Made by a program: the position numbers and the translations under genes. From assembly GCA_963623195.1 (NCBI GenBank), contig CAVFKA010000010.1:200974-264973 (forward strand): 64,000 nucleotides of DNA. The letters are read 5' to 3'. The notes under the pieces were generated by a model that worked only from the letters and a program-made list of their open reading frames with translations, did no database searches and was not told where the DNA came from. Origin of the DNA: a bacterium. Lineage in GTDB: Bacteria > Bacillota_I > Bacilli_A > RFN20 > CAG-826. Below are positions 3,401 through 23,026 of this stretch, piece after piece (positions within the stretch are counted from its first letter, which is position 1; every line of letters begins with the position of its first letter).

Positions 3401-6283
3401 TTACGCCTTTCTTATTAATTCCTTCAAATCTTCTGGTATATCTTCAATTTCGAATTTTGGTTTGGAAACAAAATACCCTTGAACATAATCGCAACCGATT
3501 TCCTTGACGTATTTCAATTCTTCAATTGTTTCTACCGCTTCTGCGACAACCTTGATTCCATTGACTTTGCAATAGGAAACAATAGTCTTTGTAAGTTGTT
3601 TCTTTTTGTCGTCTTTATCGATACCTCTAATTAAAGATCCTTCGATTTTGACATATTTTGGAGAATAGTTAAGAATCATTGATATCGAATTAAAGCCAGT
3701 TCCGTAATCATCAATCGCATAATCGATGTTATTTGAAGTAAGCAAATCGACCTTTTTCCTCATGATATCATTTTGTCCGAAGTCTTCTTCGATAATCTCA
3801 ATCGTAAGTTTGTCGGCGATTCCTTTGTTCTTTTCGAAGAATTCGTTCCAAGCGACATCAGAGAGAATCTGAGAAGAGATTGAGTTGATGAATAATTTCT
3901 TATCCGTTTTCGATTCAATATATTTTTTTGGCGCATTGAATAAGGTTAAATACTCAATATCATATAAACGGTTATATTTCTTTGCTGCGTCAATGACTTT
4001 TAGAGGAGACATGTTAGGCACTGTTGGACGCATGAGGGCCTCATAGCCAAGCACTTCACCGCTATGAATATCGACAATTGGTTGATAAGCGTAAGAAATA
4101 AGGTTTTTTGAGATGATATCATTGAGCTCTTCATATAAGAGATTTTGCTTTTTGTATTCGTTGTATTCCTCATCATCAAACATGACGACTTTGTTCTTAC
4201 CTGAACGTTTAGCCTCATACATGGCAAAATCAGCTCTGTTTCTAAGCTCTTCTATTTCAATTCCTTTTTCATAGCCACAGACGCCAGAGGAGAAAGAAAT
4301 GTAAATCTCTTTTTCTTTGAAAACAATGAATTCTTCTTTGATTGTCTTGAGTTCCTCGATGAAATCTTTCAATTCATCCTCCGAGGAATAATCATAAAGA
4401 TAAAGGATAAATTCATCGCCTGAAAGATGACCGGCTAATAAGTTCTTATGTTTCTTAGTCAAAGAAAGGAGATATGAGCCGATTCTTCTTAGATAAGTGT
4501 CTCCAAATTCATGTCCATATCTATCGTTAATGAGTTTAAGGTTATCAACATCGATCATGAATAAAGAACCGTTTTTGCATTCATTTAGGATTCTTTCGAC
4601 CCTACTCATGAAACCACGGCGATTAAGAAGAGAGGTAAGAATATCGTAATCTCTTTCTTTTTCCACTTCTTTTTTGGCTAGATATTCATCCGTCAAATCA
4701 ATCAATGTGGCAAAAGATCCAGTATTTGAAAGACTTATTTTGAGTTGGAGGTAGTTTGAATCGATATAAAAAACAAATTCATTGTTTTCTAGGAGCATGT
4801 TTTCATCTATGCAATTAGAAGTTTTTTCATAAATTTTTAGCTCATTTAAACGGGAGATGAATTCTTTCGAAGATACCTTTTCATTCGTGTAATTCAGTTT
4901 CAATAGTTTATAAAAAGCGGATGTTGTCGTGACTTCGTCTTTTTCTTTTGAATATTCAAGGAAGGCCATCTTTGTGGATGATGCTTCGACTATTCGATTG
5001 ATTTTTTCACTTAGTTCTGTGTTTTTTCTAAAGTAGCTTTGAATTTCATCCGATAAGGAGTCAACTTCAGCAATTTTGGTTCTAGGAATATCATTAACAC
5101 CTTCTTCGCTGATTGTTCTAGCGACGCCTCTGATTGGCTTTGAAACCATCTCGGAGGTTATAACAAGAGCAATCATGGTAACCAAAAAGGCAATGCCTAA
5201 GGTAAGGCTAACTTGCATAGCAAGCTTATTTGAAGTTTTTAAAATTACCGATGAAGGCGATATTCCAACGACGAACCATTCATCTCCATAAGGGGATTCT
5301 CCGTTATAGATGTTGATTTCATCCTCGTAATAATATTCCTCTTCATCATAATTTTTAAAAGAGTAAATGTTTTCGTAATTAGTTTTCTCTAAAGAAATCT
5401 TCGAGGCGTCAGGCAAGGAATAATCAACATACTGCGTGAAAGCAGAATAATTGCCGTTTTGTCCTCTACTGATGAGAGCGAGGTTAAGATTATCTCCTTT
5501 TGAGATGCTAGACATATAGTTTCTAAGGTATTGTTCAGTTAAGCCGACACCCATAACTCCGATGACTTTGTTTTCATAAATCAAAGGCAAAGAGTATGTT
5601 AAAACATTATTTGAAGCAATATTTAGGGTACAAGTCCAATAACCAACGACATCTTCATCAAGATGAGCGTTCATATATTGATATGGATACTCATAGAAGC
5701 CTTTATTAGAGATATCCGAATATTTGTTATCATCAACATTAACCGAAATGCTAAAGCCTTGATCGTAATAAGAGTCAAACAAAACATATGGAGAATAGAT
5801 GACTTCAATTTCTGAACTATCAGATTTTAGAGGGTTTTTAGCTCTTAAATATACTGTCTCTTTCTCGCTAGAATATGTCGTATTTAAGACAAGGAAAGAG
5901 TCATTTACGTGGTTTTTTTGAATTAATTCAGGAAATATAGCGCTTTGGGAAAGAAGCAACGAATTTGTCTCGTTTTTGTTTGATAAAACTTCATCGATGC
6001 TCTTTCCGCTATTTTGCAAATAACTTTTCGTATTGGAAATAAATTGGTCGTAAAAGGAAGTAATATTCGACCATTTTGAAGACATCGAAGTCTCCATGTA
6101 GTTCTTTCTAAGGTTAACTGAGGTTTCAAAGTTGCCAATCAAAGACTTATTTAAAGTGTTTATCCCAACCTCAAAAATAAGGATGACGAAAATAACGATA
6201 CTCTGAGCCAAAACAATAAGAATCGGTGGAACGAATATCTTGAAGTTTATCGTATTATAGATTTTGTAATCTTTTTTCTTCAT
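3401..6283 (-). CDS. Membrane-bound c-di-GMP signalling protein: TM, ~330-aa extracytoplasmic (Cache-like) domain, TM, GGDEF(SGDEF), EAL
   Basis: 960 aa with two TM segments (aa ~15-37 and ~355-377). The GGDEF domain carries variant SGDEF (HLSGDEFILY). The EAL domain has EALMRP, DDYGTGFNS and QGYF motifs. Confidence 0.85.
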   Translation of the reverse strand: MKKKDYKIYNTINFKIFVPPILIVLAQSIVIFVILIFEVGINTLNKSLIGNFETSVNLRKNYMETSMSSKWSNITSFYDQFISNTKSYLQNSGKSIDEVLSNKNETNSLLLSQSAIFPELIQKNHVNDSFLVLNTTYSSEKETVYLRAKNPLKSDSSEIEVIYSPYVLFDSYYDQGFSISVNVDDNKYSDISNKGFYEYPYQYMNAHLDEDVVGYWTCTLNIASNNVLTYSLPLIYENKVIGVMGVGLTEQYLRNYMSSISKGDNLNLALISRGQNGNYSAFTQYVDYSLPDASKISLEKTNYENIYSFKNYDEEEYYYEDEINIYNGESPYGDEWFVVGISPSSVILKTSNKLAMQVSLTLGIAFLVTMIALVITSEMVSKPIRGVARTISEEGVNDIPRTKIAEVDSLSDEIQSYFRKNTELSEKINRIVEASSTKMAFLEYSKEKDEVTTTSAFYKLLKLNYTNEKVSSKEFISRLNELKIYEKTSNCIDENMLLENNEFVFYIDSNYLQLKISLSNTGSFATLIDLTDEYLAKKEVEKERDYDILTSLLNRRGFMSRVERILNECKNGSLFMIDVDNLKLINDRYGHEFGDTYLRRIGSYLLSLTKKHKNLLAGHLSGDEFILYLYDYSSEDELKDFIEELKTIKEEFIVFKEKEIYISFSSGVCGYEKGIEIEELRNRADFAMYEAKRSGKNKVVMFDDEEYNEYKKQNLLYEELNDIISKNLISYAYQPIVDIHSGEVLGYEALMRPTVPNMSPLKVIDAAKKYNRLYDIEYLTLFNAPKKYIESKTDKKLFINSISSQILSDVAWNEFFEKNKGIADKLTIEIIEEDFGQNDIMRKKVDLLTSNNIDYAIDDYGTGFNSISMILNYSPKYVKIEGSLIRGIDKDDKKKQLTKTIVSYCKVNGIKVVAEAVETIEELKYVKEIGCDYVQGYFVSKPKFEIEDIPEDLKELIRKA

Positions 6284-7763: not shown

Positions 7764-9380
7764 TTATTTTGTTTTGAAAGATTTGTTTCCGTCGGAGAAG
7801 GACATGTTCTTTTCAAGATTTGGATATTTGCTGTTATATGTCGCAGGGCTTGGGAAACCAACCTCTCCAACTGCTTTTGTTTGAACATATGTCCTTGAAT
7901 GATTGAAATAATTTGGAAGAGGCTTATCCGTGATATTTGTTTTATCGGAGACTTTGTTTTCTTTTTCGCAAAGATCACTCATCTCATGAAGGAGAGTTGC
8001 CCCTCTAGTCAAGGAAGTCGTTACCTTTTGAACCTTGCCGCCTTTGAGGTTATCTCTAATCGCCATAAGGGTGCCAAGAGCAAGAATAAAGCCAGGAACG
8101 TAATCAAGAGGGACTCCATTTAGGTTTACTGGATTCTCTTTCGAGCCATTTCTAATTGAAAGACCGGTGATATCTTCAGCTAAAGGTGCCCAACCTGGTC
8201 TATCTTTCCAAACCGTATCAGAGAAACACATAAGGTTAGAATAGATAACATTTGGGTTGATTTTTCTTATTTCTTCTTCAGAAAGGCCAAACTTATCGAA
8301 ACATCCGTTTTGATATGAATAGGTGATTACGTCTGCTTCTTTGATTAGTTCTTTGATTCTTGAGAGGTCTTCTTCCTTATTTAAATCAAGTTGGATCGAA
8401 TCTTTTCCTGCCCAGCCATCAAGTTCGAGCATGGCTTGTTCTTGTTCTTTGAAGGAACCTCTTCTAACTAAGAGGACATCTGCGCCATATTCGGCTAAGA
8501 TTCTTGAGCATGCAGGCCCAGCGATAATGTGTGTCAAATCAAGGACTTTGATGCCAGTCAGTGGACCATTTTCCAAAGATGGAGAAAGTTTCATCTTGGC
8601 GTTATCGTTGGTTTCTTCGAATCTAATCAGCGGCATCTCTTTGACGGCTTTGCCAACTTCACTTGCTTCCCATTCGTCTCTTGAACGAAGAATACATGCG
8701 CAAGCCCCACAAGAGAAAGCAAGTTCTTCAAGCTCTTTTGAATCCCATTTAGCCACTTCTTTTTTAAGATATTTGATATCTTTTTTTGTGGACATGAGGG
8801 TGAATTTATCATAAGGCTTATCTAATTTCATTCCTTCGACAAGTTTCTTTTGCTGTGATTGATAATAGGTATGGAAAGAAATGTAACGACCATCTTTTGT
8901 CTTATATTTATAGAATGATCCATTTATCGCATTATCAACTCTTATTGCAGAGGCTAAGCGTGATTTTTTGAATTCTTTGTCGTAATAGTTGGCCATATAG
9001 AGCCTTATTGCTTGGAGTCCTGCATAGGAGATATCGCAATAGATATGGCCATCTTTGATATCATCTCCTCTAAGTTGGCCGATTTCGCTCGCTAGGTTGC
9101 TACAAAGAGATAAAACAGCCGCAATGACTGAACTTTGCAAAACCTTTTCATCAAGGAATAATTTATTTACGGCTTTCTTCCTTAATTTTGCTAAAACGAA
9201 AGCAATCACATGAGGAAAAGGGTTTTCGGCAAGATAATTCTTCTTGAATTCTTTCTCAGCCTTTTCTGAGGCGATAAAGGTTACAGGCAATTTAGAATCT
9301 ATCTTCAATAAATCAGATAGGTAGTCATAGATTATTTGCGCTTCTCTAGCTTTCTTCTCAAGTATTTCTTTTGTAGACAT
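7764..9380 (-). CDS. Family III CoA-transferase (CaiB/BaiF-like) with apparently permuted domain order
   Basis: The large Rossmann domain motif GPLTGIKVLDLTHIIAGPACSRILAEYGADV lies at aa ~285 instead of the N-terminus, with the catalytic-Asp region VPLDYVPG. Small-domain-like segments (YKTKDGRYISFH, SKELEELAFSCGACACILRSRDEW) lie N-terminal to it. The start is set at ATG 9380, which has a GGAGGAG SD. The ORF-track start at 9395 is a TTG that overlaps that SD. Confidence 0.7.
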   Translation of the reverse strand: MSTKEILEKKAREAQIIYDYLSDLLKIDSKLPVTFIASEKAEKEFKKNYLAENPFPHVIAFVLAKLRKKAVNKLFLDEKVLQSSVIAAVLSLCSNLASEIGQLRGDDIKDGHIYCDISYAGLQAIRLYMANYYDKEFKKSRLASAIRVDNAINGSFYKYKTKDGRYISFHTYYQSQQKKLVEGMKLDKPYDKFTLMSTKKDIKYLKKEVAKWDSKELEELAFSCGACACILRSRDEWEASEVGKAVKEMPLIRFEETNDNAKMKLSPSLENGPLTGIKVLDLTHIIAGPACSRILAEYGADVLLVRRGSFKEQEQAMLELDGWAGKDSIQLDLNKEEDLSRIKELIKEADVITYSYQNGCFDKFGLSEEEIRKINPNVIYSNLMCFSDTVWKDRPGWAPLAEDITGLSIRNGSKENPVNLNGVPLDYVPGFILALGTLMAIRDNLKGGKVQKVTTSLTRGATLLHEMSDLCEKENKVSDKTNITDKPLPNYFNHSRTYVQTKAVGEVGFPSPATYNSKYPNLEKNMSFSDGNKSFKTK

Positions 9381-9455
9381 ATTCTTCTCCTCCAAGGGAT
9401 ATTCGATAAGAATATTTTAACTTATAAGTAAAAATTTATCAAATTGAGTAAGTGA

Positions 9456-11190: not shown

Positions 11191-12774
11191 TTAATACGTT
11201 CCATCAGGAAGTAACGCTGTGTTTCCTAATGAAATATATTTTCCGCTTGTTGCGGTTCCCGTGCTCCAATCATTGCCATTTTCATAGACTGTGAAGCCAT
11301 CAGTTCCAGTTATCTTAACAACCTCAGGTGCATCGGCATCGTATTTTACTGGGTTAGTAATTTTATTGTTGCTAAACACGATCGTTGAGGATGAATCGGC
11401 ATTAGCCATACGAATAAATCTGCCATTGATTTGATCTACCGTATTACCACTGAAAATGAATCGTCCTTTGTTAACCTTGTTAGAAATTTGTAAGACGTTA
11501 TCGCTCACTGTGCTATCAGTAATGTTATTATTTTTAACTTTCAAACCATTCAAAACAGCGGAAGTATTGTTGAAACACACGGTTTGAACATATGAAGAAA
11601 TCGTGTTGCCAACTAAGGAAATATTGTTATATCCATTCATATTTGTATCAACAAAAGTTTTGTCCGTTGATCCGCTACCTGCATAGAAGAAATGGATATC
11701 TTTTGTATTATTCCCTACTGCCGTGCAGTTTTTGACGGTGAATCCATTAACAAGCAATGTTGCACTGCTTGTGCTAGCGTCGTTATCTATTATTTGAACA
11801 GGGTTTTGTTCAACATTGTCAAATGTAATGCCCTTTATTGTGACATCCTCTAATGATAGATATGAAATAAAACCACTATTTTCTCTACCCATTTCGGCTT
11901 GATTTGAAGCAGGGGCGCTTGACCACCATTTCAATCCAGCTTCAGCTTCGATGCCATCACAAGTAACTGTGGCGCCTTCTTTAGCTTCGATTGTTAGCCC
12001 CTTAATAGCCCTATAGTATCCTGGATAAGAAGAATCTTTATCTAAGTCAGTTCTTCTAGTTGACACATCTAAGTCTTGTCTTAAGTACAATGTGCTGTAA
12101 TCACCTTCTGTAAGTATGACTGTCGCCTCGCCTGTAATGCCATCTAGAATTTCTTGTGCGTTTGAAGGGGTGACCTCATATACTCCAGCATCTGCATTAC
12201 CTTGGATGGCTTCAACTGCATATGATAATTTGCAAGATGTGCCTTGATAATAATTTTCCGCTTCTAAAGGCATTTCAATAGAAACCGTGACGATCTTACT
12301 GTCTGCACCTACTGCATAGTCTTCATATGCGGTCCTTACGGTGCCTCCGTCAAATTCTTCATCGTCGATACTTATTTTTAGACCATCGAATAAACCTGTA
12401 TCCTCTAAGGCTTTGATAACGGTGCGATATTTAACGTTTACCGTCGAATTGTTTTCAATCTTGATATTAAAGCAAATCTTATCACCAGGTAAAATGTTGG
12501 TTAAAGCAATGGTTTGCGCTTGTTTATTTAGTAAGCATGTGCCTGATGCTAAGGAACCATCGACATCATCATATTGATTTGTCGTTGAATTCCATTGCTT
12601 GTGGGACGTTGAAATCTCGCCATCTACCACTGCAGTTACGTCCACCTTGCCTGAGGTGATCGCGACGTTTACCTTCGCCTCCGAGGTGAAGAGGGCGTAG
12701 GTCGAGCCGGCGATGACGGCCCCGCATCCCAGGATGCTAAGCAGAGCCGGGACCACGATTTTTCTTTTGTTCAT
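11191..12774 (-). CDS. Secreted protein: SipW-type signal peptide plus TasA/camelysin (M73-like) N-terminal domain, fused to a right-handed parallel beta-helix domain
   Basis: 527 aa with SD AAAGGAGAA. The N-terminus MNKRKIVVPALLSILGCGAVIAGSTYALFTSEAKVNVAITSGKVDV matches the TasA/CalY-type signal and first strand. LPGDKICFNIKIENNSTVNV and KLSYAVEAIQGN match later TasA-fold strands. The C-terminal ~330 aa carry repetitive N/G/V-rich beta-helix-like turns (VKNCTAVGNN, LVGNTISS, VKNNNITDS, FSGNTVDQ, FSNNKITN). Confidence 0.75.
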   Translation of the reverse strand: MNKRKIVVPALLSILGCGAVIAGSTYALFTSEAKVNVAITSGKVDVTAVVDGEISTSHKQWNSTTNQYDDVDGSLASGTCLLNKQAQTIALTNILPGDKICFNIKIENNSTVNVKYRTVIKALEDTGLFDGLKISIDDEEFDGGTVRTAYEDYAVGADSKIVTVSIEMPLEAENYYQGTSCKLSYAVEAIQGNADAGVYEVTPSNAQEILDGITGEATVILTEGDYSTLYLRQDLDVSTRRTDLDKDSSYPGYYRAIKGLTIEAKEGATVTCDGIEAEAGLKWWSSAPASNQAEMGRENSGFISYLSLEDVTIKGITFDNVEQNPVQIIDNDASTSSATLLVNGFTVKNCTAVGNNTKDIHFFYAGSGSTDKTFVDTNMNGYNNISLVGNTISSYVQTVCFNNTSAVLNGLKVKNNNITDSTVSDNVLQISNKVNKGRFIFSGNTVDQINGRFIRMANADSSSTIVFSNNKITNPVKYDADAPEVVKITGTDGFTVYENGNDWSTGTATSGKYISLGNTALLPDGTY

Positions 12775-12986
12775 TCTTTTCTCCTTTAAGGCCGTGAGGG
12801 GCCCTCTCTACAAATGGCCCGCCCCGGTCTTTTTTTCCTGGCACCGCTATGAATCGATGCCTTTTCGTGTGCTTAAATTATACCTATATATATTACAAGG
12901 GAAAAATTCAGCGAAAGGGCGTCTCATCCGATGGAAGCTAGGATTTATTATGTTATTTCATAGTCAGTCATAATGGAGGGGGATAG

Positions 12987-13016
12987 AAAAAAGCCCCGAT
13001 ATTCCATCAGAGGCTT
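12987..13016 (-). terminator. Possible terminator after tRNA-Cys
   Basis: Minus-strand hairpin AAGCC(U)C...G(G)GGCUU followed by UUUUUU. The stem is short and imperfect. Confidence 0.4.
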
Positions 13017-13029
13017 AGTTTCGTTTTAA

Positions 13030-13103
13030 TGGAGCATCCGGCCGGATTTGAACCGACGGTAAGTGAGTTGCAGTCACTGGCCTTACCACTTGGCTACGGA
13101 TGC
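13030..13103 (-). tRNA. tRNA-Cys (anticodon GCA), CCA encoded
   Basis: Manual cloverleaf of the 74-nt sequence. Acceptor GCATCCG/CGGATGC, anticodon stem AGTGA/TCACT, loop CTGCAAC (GCA), T arm GTCGG-TTCAAAT-CCGGC. Discriminator U73 (Cys identity element) and a 3' CCA. Confidence 0.9.
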
Positions 13104-13113
13104 AGCGTTATGG

Positions 13114-13142
13114 ATTATAGCATTCTACTTTGTTTGTTTCAA
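13114..13142 (-). promoter_or_regulatory. Near-consensus sigma-70 promoter for tRNA-Cys
   Basis: Minus strand: TTGAAA (13142-13137), 17-nt spacer, TGc-TATAAT (13119-13114). Only 10 nt separate the -10 hexamer from the mature tRNA 5' end. Confidence 0.6.
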
Positions 13143-13171
13143 CATTTTGAATGAGATAATCCATCACTTTT

Positions 13172-15019
13172 TTAGTTTGCTTTCTTTTCTTGACGACGTT
13201 TTTGACGTAAAGATTTAGAAATTCCTTTTCTTACTAAGAAATAAGCAAGGAGGGTGCAAAGAATTACCGCTTCAATGATGAGGATGATTGTTACAGCAAG
13301 AGGGACTGTGCCACTTTTGACTGATTCCCACATCGTAAGAACATATTCGTTATTATCGCCATAGTCTTCCATGACCATCAAAGAATCAACGATTTCATTT
13401 GGTGGATATTGGGCGAAGAAAGATCTTCCTGTGATGAACTCTTCGCCATTATCGAGAGTATACGTCTCATATTCGTCAGTATAGAAAACCGTATCGGTAA
13501 CATCTTCGTAATCTTCTAGAGATCCATCAAAGAAATAGCCAAGATCAACAGCTGTCCAGCCTAGGTCGTTCTTTTCTGAGTAATCATCCCATGAAGTGTA
13601 GCTTTCATCGCCAATTTTTCCATTACCTGTTTGGAAAAGAGCGTTGAATTCATCATCAGAGAGAGATTTATATTCATCAAGTCTGACTAGATTTTCATCT
13701 TCATCATATACGTAAGAATCTTCTTCTTCATCATATTGATAGAAGACATCCATTCTAACGTCATACCATTCTCTAGCAAGGGAGAGAACATCATCTCCAG
13801 CGATGGTTGAGGTGTAGCCAATATAATCCATATTTGCGGCTGCAATCTCAGGATCGGAAAGGAAATCAATGAACTTTTGGGCGTATTCTTGGGTTTGAAC
13901 AGTTGATGGGATGACCCATGCATCAAGCCAGATATTCGCGCCAATAGACGGGATGGAATAATATAGTTCGGTGCCGAGTTCCTCAGCTGAATCGATAGCG
14001 TATACGGCATCGCCTGACCAAGCAAGATTGATACCAGTTCTATTGCCGGTTTGAATGTCGGTTTTTCCTGAATCAACTTCAAGACCATAGGAATTGTTTT
14101 TCAAAGAGGTTAATTCTCTTTCGACCGCGTCTATGATATCTTGAGCGCTATAGGTTGAATCTTTTCCTAAGGATTTCATCAAATCATTGAATTCATCAAC
14201 ATGGGAAATATTGTTGAAAATGATGTTGATGTCTTTGTTATATGTTTCAGAATCTAGGGTTCCTTCAAGGTTTTGTTTGCGTAATGTTTCAAACTCATCC
14301 TTGAAAGCTTCAAGAAGGGCAATCGCGTAAGAATCACGCATGGAATCTTTGATTTGGAAGGTTCTTGTATATGAATCTTCCCATAAGGAAGAATATGTCG
14401 CCATATCTTTTTTGACGTCATCGCTAGATAAGCCACGTCCTTGATATGTGCTAAAGGTTGGGTTATACATGATACCAAGCGTACCCCACATGTAGCCACG
14501 CATATAATCGGTAACATGTTCTTCTTTATCGCCAATTTTAACGGTGATATCACCAAAGAGCTTATCGAAATATGGAGAGGCATATAGGGCGTAATTATCA
14601 TCTACCCATCCTTCAAAGCCATGTTGATAGAGGTTTTCTCTATCTGTTCCGCTTTTGAAAGGGACAAGGAGATTATTTGCCATCATCTTCTCGACCATGT
14701 AGTCGGATGTACAGATCAAATCATAGTTTTGAGCGCCTGTTTGAAGGTTCGAAAGCATGATTTCGTTTGTATCGAAAGTGGAATATGAGACTTCGATATC
14801 AACATTGTCTTCCTCTAAGACTTTTTCTTTGAAAGCAGAGATGATATCAAGAGATCCATCATCACCTGTGGCAATATAGTCTTCGGAATTGTAGATTGAA
14901 AGGGTTACCTTGCTTGCTAGAGCTTTTTGGGCATCTTTCCTAGCCTGCATATAGGTAGGAACGGTGTTTCCTGAAGCAAGAAGATAAGAAATTAATGACC
15001 AAACTAAGATATTTTTCAT
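13172..15019 (-). CDS. potD: Spermidine/putrescine ABC transporter substrate-binding protein, extended form with C-terminal TM anchor
   Basis: 615 aa and last gene of the pot operon (ATGA overlap with potC). PotD-like N-terminal block (KVTLSIYNSEDYIA). C-terminal hydrophobic helix (LAVTIILIIEAVILCTLLAYFLV) followed by a basic tail. Confidence 0.75.
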   Translation of the reverse strand: MKNILVWSLISYLLASGNTVPTYMQARKDAQKALASKVTLSIYNSEDYIATGDDGSLDIISAFKEKVLEEDNVDIEVSYSTFDTNEIMLSNLQTGAQNYDLICTSDYMVEKMMANNLLVPFKSGTDRENLYQHGFEGWVDDNYALYASPYFDKLFGDITVKIGDKEEHVTDYMRGYMWGTLGIMYNPTFSTYQGRGLSSDDVKKDMATYSSLWEDSYTRTFQIKDSMRDSYAIALLEAFKDEFETLRKQNLEGTLDSETYNKDINIIFNNISHVDEFNDLMKSLGKDSTYSAQDIIDAVERELTSLKNNSYGLEVDSGKTDIQTGNRTGINLAWSGDAVYAIDSAEELGTELYYSIPSIGANIWLDAWVIPSTVQTQEYAQKFIDFLSDPEIAAANMDYIGYTSTIAGDDVLSLAREWYDVRMDVFYQYDEEEDSYVYDEDENLVRLDEYKSLSDDEFNALFQTGNGKIGDESYTSWDDYSEKNDLGWTAVDLGYFFDGSLEDYEDVTDTVFYTDEYETYTLDNGEEFITGRSFFAQYPPNEIVDSLMVMEDYGDNNEYVLTMWESVKSGTVPLAVTIILIIEAVILCTLLAYFLVRKGISKSLRQKRRQEKKAN

Positions 15020-21104: not shown

Positions 21105-23026
<1,922 letters not shown>

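Follow-up and report, generated by a model that had tools for sequence, protein, structure and literature searches.

A TasA-like gene with a GC-rich head

The DNA analysed here is a stretch of 64 kb, referred to below as the window, from contig CAVFKA010000010.1 (assembly GCA_963623195.1, positions 200,974 to 264,973) of a bacterium of the GTDB lineage Bacillota_I; Bacilli_A; RFN20; CAG-826. Its subject is a TasA-like gene on the minus strand (coding sequence 11191-12774, start at 12774, 527 amino acids), the 5' end of which is far richer in G+C than the remainder. We refer to codons 1-39 as the head and to the following codons as the body; GC3 is the G+C content of third codon positions, and L-numbers denote comparison sequences from other assemblies. 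The parts of the locus, all on the minus strand, are the following.

12877..12898, minus strand: putative promoter, with TTGTAA at 12898-12893, a 10-nt spacer TATATATAGG holding (TA)n at 12892-12883, and TATAAT at 12882-12877
12775..12870, minus strand: 5' leader from a predicted transcription start; GC 0.53; hairpin 1 at 12861-12840 and hairpin 2 at 12827-12792
12787-12781, minus strand: Shine-Dalgarno sequence AAAGGAG, within the leader and upstream of the start at 12774
12727..12774, minus strand: head codons 1-16, MNKRKIVVPALLSILG; n- and h-regions of a SipW-type signal peptide; GC 0.48
12658..12726, minus strand: head codons 17-39, CGAVIAGSTYALFTSEAKVNVAI; end of the signal peptide, predicted SipW cleavage motif and first 12 mature residues (candidate donor strand)
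12657..12658, minus strand: head/body recombination junction at codon 39/40, placed by comparison with L057 and by the switch in substitution bias
11191..12657, minus strand: body codons 40-527 and stop; TasA/camelysin-like N-terminal domain and C-terminal extension; P0002 paralogue type; GC3 0.33
13030..13103, minus strand: tRNA-Cys(GCA), found by ARAGORN and Rfam; a terminator-like hairpin at 12994-13012 comes from a terminator scan

The original prediction described a high-GC patch of about 270 bp over the leader and the signal-peptide codons, and its counts per 60-nt block (32, 40, 29, 35 and 22 of 60) were reproduced exactly. The most GC-rich 200-bp segment of the whole 64 kb lies at 12627-12826 (0.59), against a mean of 0.377 (standard deviation 0.046) for all such segments and 0.495 for the second highest. 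The preponderance of G and C at third codon positions, read there from the codons, was borne out by calculation. GC3 of the coding sequence is about 0.9 in codons 16-45 and about 0.33 in the remainder, and the value of 0.88 for codons 6-39 is the highest among 3329 segments of 34 codons taken from the 43 long open reading frames of the window (mean 0.354, standard deviation 0.084). Codon choice is equally foreign to the host: an index modelled on the codon adaptation index (CAI-like index) gives 0.462 for the GC-rich head codons against 0.754 ± 0.072 window-wide, placing them in the lowest 0.1% of 34-codon segments. Rare host codons in the head include CTG (1% of leucine codons), TCG (8%) and GCG (10%), each used twice, as well as CCG (5%), GTG (6%) and GGG (6%). 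The GC-rich patch is thus real and far beyond chance. BLAST found no second copy of it in the rest of the window, and a motif scan of the window for other members of the family returned a single hit, the TasA-like gene itself.

The patch is, however, uneven. GC is 0.53 in the leader, 0.48 in codons 1-16, 0.67 in codons 17-39 and 0.54 in codons 40-58, and in codons 17-39 (12658-12726, 69 bases) GC3 reaches 0.96. The differences between codons 40-58 and their low-GC homologue in L002 carry no GC bias (5:3); the moderate GC of these codons, also present in L002, is a feature common to the family and lies outside the anomaly. The strong compositional anomaly is thus confined to about 70 nt, 12658-12726.

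The junction at codon 39/40

A search with the 61-residue head as the only query returned just three short proteins, one of which, P0122, led to L057 (GCA_963627825.1), and this sequence places the junction. From 18772 down to 12657, over about 6.1 kb, L057 and the window are 98.9% identical, and this shared stretch takes in four ABC-transporter genes, the tRNA-Cys, the promoter, the leader and codons 1-39; past 12657 the two are unrelated. In L057 the gene has 81 codons, the GC-rich head being followed by 42 further codons, and this 42-codon tail is 83% identical in amino acids and 84% in nucleotides to the C-terminus of a P0019-type gene (L006/L009, assembly CAVIJK), a C-terminus conserved among the P0019-type relatives listed. 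The L057 gene reads as an in-frame internal deletion of a P0019-type gene, and the deletion appears to have formed across an NVAT...NSG microhomology.

The head of the window gene has the same affinity. In the P0019-type gene of the related species CAVIJK, 38 of the 39 head residues (MNKRKIVV...) are identical, at a head GC3 of 0.46, and the leader is homologous, so that the -10 box, both hairpin positions and the ribosome-binding site align. The body, by contrast, belongs with a different paralogue of the same CAVIJK genome: codons 40-527 are 84% identical in nucleotides and 90% in amino acids, over their full length, to the P0002-type gene of L002/L008, which closes an operon that also encodes a SipW-like peptidase and itself lacks a leader of this kind. 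The pattern of substitution changes as well, since the differences between the window and L002 are GC-ward to AT-ward 21:1 in codons 1-39 and 87:109 in codons 40-527 (Fisher p = 1.8e-6). Synonymous divergence (dS) is saturated between the window head and L009, 0.73 between the L057 tail and L009, and 0.89 between the body and L002.

The segments of the gene thus have different nearest relatives, with the breakpoint at 12658|12657, and by these comparisons the window gene is to be read as an in-frame chimera, a P0019-type head with its leader joined to a P0002-type body. The leader and head are the resident part of the tRNA-Cys locus: L057 has them next to the tRNA-Cys and the ABC-transporter flank in one unbroken stretch of 98.9% identity. 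The AT-rich body, of the other paralogue type, is the newcomer. The original prediction had proposed a mosaic junction with an imported leader and signal. A junction does lie at codon 39/40, and a GC-rich source is plausible, but the polarity is the reverse of that proposed: the head is resident and the body is what arrived. As L057 has the same head on a different partner, the GC-rich head predates the head/body fusion.

Behind the 81-codon gene of L057 (6001-6485) come a terminator and a truncated tRNA with the anticodon ACG, by eye a tRNA-Arg. The window lineage has no tRNA-Arg within about 20 kb downstream, so codon 39/40 is also a synteny breakpoint between strains. A comparison of the genes downstream in the window with the flanks of L002, L009 and L057 gave no synteny, and no full-length P0019-type orthologue closer than the CAVIJK copy was found in the window's species. 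The tRNA-Cys, present as the upstream neighbour in L057, is absent from L001 (GCA_963629545.1). There the gene is 98-99% identical to that of the window, and the upstream flank diverges from window position 13012 onward (L001:1-162 compared with window 13013-13180). That flank had no match among the other sequences compared; it may represent either another genomic setting of the gene or a strain rearrangement.

Mosaic genes of this kind are well known among surface and secreted proteins, where recombination at a conserved 5' end generates type IV pilin variants and polymorphic toxins swap their N- and C-termini. In the Mycoplasma vsa/vlp families, one conserved 5' end with its signal peptide is joined to alternative bodies. 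Like these systems, the window gene combines a conserved 5' block, made up of leader, signal peptide and the start of the mature protein, with a body that can differ; the fusion is in frame, it falls where the conserved block ends, and strains vary. It differs from them in that no site-specific recombinase, inverted repeats or silent cassettes lie near it, and in that the exchanges are fixed differences between strains, not programmed switching. It is a mosaic of a known kind, produced by recombination of a conserved 5' module in a recombination-prone family. Programmed cassette switching by an invertase, a shufflon or a diversity-generating retroelement was considered and rejected: no significant repeats flank the head, and the neighbours are transporters, cyclic di-GMP (c-di-GMP) enzymes and housekeeping genes. 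A repeat search around the patch yielded nothing beyond short chance matches, with no inversion or att-like repeats.

The source of the GC in codons 17-39

The nearest match to the anomalous codons comes from a GC-rich relative. L060, an ENA contig with a P0019-type gene, has a locus GC of 0.54, a head GC3 of 1.00 and a body GC3 of 0.74. Over the 69 nt of codons 17-39 the window is 90% identical to L060, against 75-84% to low-GC heads, and the two have an identical run of 35 nt in common. In codons 1-16 the affinity is reversed, with 83% nucleotide identity to the low-GC L006 head and only 60% to L060. Of the informative sites in codons 1-16, 14 side with L006 and 3 with L060, and of those in codons 17-39, 4 side with L006 and 14 with L060 (Fisher p = 6e-4); at fourfold sites the window makes the same choice between G and C as L060 at 11 of 13 comparable positions (p = 0.011). 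Relative to L006, differences are GC-ward to AT-ward 23:14 in the leader, 5:2 in codons 1-16 and 13:0 in codons 17-39. Transversions account for roughly half of the changes relative to an L006-like sequence, as read by eye from the codon listing. The composition of the tract, with its GC3 of 0.96 and its CAI-like index in the lowest 0.1%, is atypical in the way expected of imported DNA.

It is plausible, on these sequence affinities, that codons 17-39 were imported from a high-GC source. Since the low-GC relative is the nearer one for the leader, for codons 1-16 and for the L057 tail, any import was short, of about 70 nt or more, and did not span the whole 270 bp; the proposal that leader and secretion signal were imported together fails on this point. 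The event that we envisage is a short gene conversion, in which a tract of a P0019-type homologue from a GC-rich (about 54% GC) relative would have been copied into codons 17-39 of a leader and head that are native in all other respects. The nearly invariant head peptide CGAVIAGSTYALFTSEAKVNVA would supply the nucleotide homology for such a conversion, and near-invariance of the head residues across the family would likewise provide homology for in-frame exchanges. The conserved 5' module would probably have received a short conversion tract of xenologous origin.

As in known imported conversion tracts, composition changes in a sharp step, the codons are atypical of the host, synonymous divergence is saturated, and the tract resembles a GC-rich relative more than it does the closest low-GC ones. 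It is different in being very short (about 70 nt visible), in that its donor was not found in the searches, and in lying within a family whose heads tend to be GC3-rich anyway. Taken as a whole, a P0019-type head module, its fusion to a P0002-type body and an earlier short GC-rich conversion tract form the best explanation, to which we assign a probability of about 0.6.

Several observations pull the other way. With differences at 7 of the 39 head residues, and with a leader and tail less close to the window lineage than those of L006/L009 are, L060 itself was not the donor. Searches for the GC-rich head came back empty: two scans of JGI metagenomes, one for a GC3-degenerate pattern and the other for a head pattern, gave 0 matches each, blastn in distant mode gave none in the plasmid and phage collections, a scan of GTDB species representatives returned no GC-rich head of this type, and a scan of viral contigs for the 35-mer common with L060 gave 0 matches. 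The 3' junction of the body replacement and the source copy of the body were both sought and not located. The GC3-rich heads of assemblies CAVJPU and CAYPED also use GTC ATC GCC GGC TCG, so part of the resemblance to L060 may be a family-wide nucleotide preference or convergence. In several genomes of 39-54% GC (L005, L026, L029, L038 and L046 of CAVJPU, L030 and L033 of CAYPED, and L060) heads reach a GC3 of 0.55-1.00, which is 0.05-0.40 above that of their own bodies. The excess of head over body GC3, +0.13 to +0.40 in several mid-GC genomes and +0.26 in L060, hints at a general force on heads in place of a one-off import.

Evolution in situ is the strongest of the alternatives, though we consider it unlikely. 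In this account the head is a recombination hot spot in which biased gene conversion drove synonymous sites to G or C without a foreign donor, the chimera being real all the same. Head GC3 exceeds body GC3 by a mean of 0.056 and is the higher in 15 of 23 assemblies (Wilcoxon p = 0.03), the excess being up to +0.40 in CAVJPU, +0.26 in L060 and +0.20 in L058, a paralogue from the same species. For five of the six CAVJPU paralogues, upstream sequences are 63-100% identical and heads 82-94%, against mostly about 60-70% for the bodies. Leader and head, with near-identity extending over the 100 nt upstream, behave there as a shared module that evolves in concert, which speaks for a modular head on the preferred account as well. 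Two independent rearrangement junctions at codon 39/40 agree with a hot spot, as do the homologous leader and the 38 of 39 head residues that match the low-GC orthologue, and GC3-rich heads from different lineages make the same G/C choices. However, the head of L058 has a GC3 of only 0.57 and is only 79% identical to that of the window, so these two heads are not being homogenised. The bias is, moreover, packed into 69 nt and not spread across the homologous head and leader (23:14 against L006 in the leader), many of the changes are transversions, and dS is saturated. Effects of biased gene conversion reported in bacteria are weak in comparison with a jump from 0.45 to 0.96, which weighs further against this account.

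Selection on the nucleic acid or on translation, whether through slowed early translation for signal-peptide targeting, lowered initiation or a regulatory or stabilising mRNA structure, is improbable. Its appeal lies in the extreme cluster of rare codons (0.462 against 0.754 ± 0.072), which sits exactly on the signal peptide, and enrichment of rare codons in signal peptides has been described in Escherichia coli. Pairing in leader hairpin 1 is also conserved relative to L006 through two double-sided compensatory changes (GGCAUCG/CGGUGCC as against GACAUUG/CAAUGUC). Yet close homologues with the same peptide (L002, L006, L007 and L058) do not have the codon bias, so the rare codons are not a conserved requirement of the family; and the bias stops at the recombination junction, not at the functional boundary of the signal peptide. 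As for structure, which had been offered as the alternative to import, the fold of leader plus early coding sequence scores z = -0.87 in the window and -0.02 in L006 against dinucleotide shuffles. It is no more stable than the shuffles, and structure selection is therefore rejected as the main cause. An Rfam 15 scan of 12000-13400 agrees, in that no leader family was found and only the tRNA-Cys passes, the best match in the leader being the KDPG-aldolase RNA at 16 bits against 54.6 (E = 5.7).

A constraint from the opposite strand has very little to recommend it. An 86-residue plus-strand reading frame (12713-12973) spans the patch, and both leader hairpins are followed by plus-strand T-runs like those of intrinsic terminators, but no plus-strand gene lies upstream for such terminators to serve, long reading frames are expected by chance in GC-rich sequence, and the third-position periodicity of the minus strand would be left unexplained. 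Least credible of all is an assembly or binning artefact that joined a GC-rich fragment of another organism into the contig. In its favour are the sharpness of the boundaries, the origin of the related sequences in metagenome-assembled genomes and the breaks of several contigs close to the gene. Against it, the same leader and GC-rich head occur in three separate assemblies (the window, L001 and L057), which shows that the patch is not an assembly artefact, and they do so with two different downstream fusions; the reading frame is intact, the head is homologous to the family head throughout, and the window lies in a contig of 268 kb.

Promoter, product and neighbourhood

On the preferred account of a resident head, a newly joined body and an older conversion tract, a sharp GC step inside an intact gene resolves into a precise in-frame junction and a short GC-rich tract that preceded it. 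In this poorly studied TasA-like family the conserved N-terminus, made up of the signal peptide and a probable donor strand, behaves together with the leader as an exchangeable unit. Mosaic genes, conversion tracts and repeat promoters all belong to well-known classes of mechanism. If the arrangement were general, repertoires of matrix or fibre proteins would be reshuffled by head/body recombination, and possibly phase-varied through the TA-repeat promoter.

That promoter is the by-product of most interest. The (TA)n tract lies between a TTGTAA or TTGAAA hexamer and TATAAT (L001:275-305, L057:5876-5900), and the spacer measures 10 nt in both the window and L057 but 16 nt in L001, which has three more TA units. 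A homologous (TA)n with a -10 box precedes the stand-alone genes of L006, L009, L058 and L060, one of them at 54% GC, and in all four of these independent contigs the sequence starts within the TA tract, which is what a heterogeneous tract length would lead one to expect. Length polymorphism of a spacer repeat between strains is the mark of a phase-variable promoter, and together with the four contig breaks it suggests, from sequence, repeat-mediated phase variation of these TasA-like genes. The 16-nt spacer of L001 is near-optimal, and expression would be set by a promoter whose spacer differs in length among strains. Phase-variable promoters with dinucleotide repeats are known, as in the (TA)n of the Haemophilus influenzae hifA/hifB fimbrial promoters. 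The window tract is similar to them in lying directly between the hexamer and TATAAT and in differing in length among strains; it is different in that only three alleles are represented.

In the leader itself, GGA motifs occur after hairpin 1 and within the Shine-Dalgarno sequence. On the plus strand the T-runs TCTTTTTTT and TTTTCGTG adjoin the hairpins (12792-12861), which would resemble tandem intrinsic terminators for antisense transcription.

The gene product passes TIGR04088, the model for the SipW-dependent type of signal peptide (21.2 bits against a cut-off of 19, residues 18-44), as do the L009 and L058 paralogues. It also passes Pfam PF12389 Peptidase_M73 (camelysin/TasA) at 27.8 bits against 22.5, with only residues 70-115 aligned, and it has weak similarity (E = 3e-4) to the TasA structures 8AUR and 5OF1. 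HMMER places the TasA jellyroll at residues 68-120, so the window protein has an extra N-terminal segment. Identity as a TasA orthologue was rejected, the NCBIfam equivalog NF046066 scoring 21.7 bits against a cut-off of 450.

Compared with TasA, camelysin and the tapA-sipW-tasA operon of Bacillus subtilis, the window protein has in common a signal peptide of the TIGR04088 type with its G-[ST]-T-[YW]-A-x-F motif, a jellyroll-like N-terminal domain (the similarity in structure being weak but significant), strongly conserved first mature residues in its family and, in a related species, a homologous gene in an operon with a SipW-like peptidase. It differs in being twice as long, with about 300 additional C-terminal residues, in having about 36 extra residues between the conserved N-terminus and the jellyroll, and in that its gene stands alone with its own leader. 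No SipW-like gene was found in the 64-kb window by tblastn; in L002 a SipW-like gene of 255 residues lies upstream of the P0002-type homologue and scores 52 bits, below the equivalog cut-off. In B. subtilis TasA, SipW removes the signal peptide, after which residues 28-38 serve as the donor strand joining one subunit to another (PMC9674648). In the window protein the first 12 mature residues, LFTSEAKVNVAI, are the most conserved segment of the family and may, by analogy, act as a donor strand in fibre assembly. The head would then plausibly carry an export and assembly address, interchangeable among TasA-like paralogues, and this would account both for the conservation of its residues and for the tolerance of in-frame exchange.

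A wider scheme, which we regard as more doubtful still than GC-biased evolution in situ, would make the (TA)n promoter, leader, signal peptide and first mature residues a portable cassette for expression, export and assembly in the TasA-like family of gut Firmicutes. Swapped among bodies and species (38% as against 54% GC), it would diversify matrix subunits on one donor strand, copies being switched by TA slippage and the head GC3 being the footprint of exchange. The relatives in the family come from gut metagenome-assembled genomes, some of which are labelled Faecalibacillus or Coprobacillus.

The surroundings of the gene are those of an ordinary chromosome, with GroEL, tyrosyl- and leucyl-tRNA synthetases, PriA, ABC transporters and c-di-GMP enzymes, and with no integrase nearby. 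An integration island at the tRNA-Cys was rejected, since genes for an integrase or for mobile elements are lacking and the flanks consist of housekeeping genes. Downstream of the TasA-like gene lie a GGDEF gene (1278-2633) and a GGDEF-EAL gene (3401-6283), and in a related species an EAL-domain membrane protein directly follows the P0019-type gene (L009:2030-3979). Such c-di-GMP genes near TasA-like genes may point to regulation of matrix genes. The GroEL at 21105-22721 (minus strand) forms a 90%-identity cluster by itself in a collection of about 15 billion proteins, which therefore includes no close relative of the organism. A 543-residue reading frame at 7764-9395 (minus strand), with a TTG start, has a family III CoA-transferase domain at residues 279-471 only; the first 278 or so residues, which match no Pfam family, may reflect a mis-set start or a fusion. 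The adjacent ABC transporter has a solute-binding protein (13172-15019, minus strand) of unusual length, 615 amino acids; the acidic C-terminal part of this protein, rich in D, E and Y, ends in a hydrophobic segment resembling a membrane anchor.

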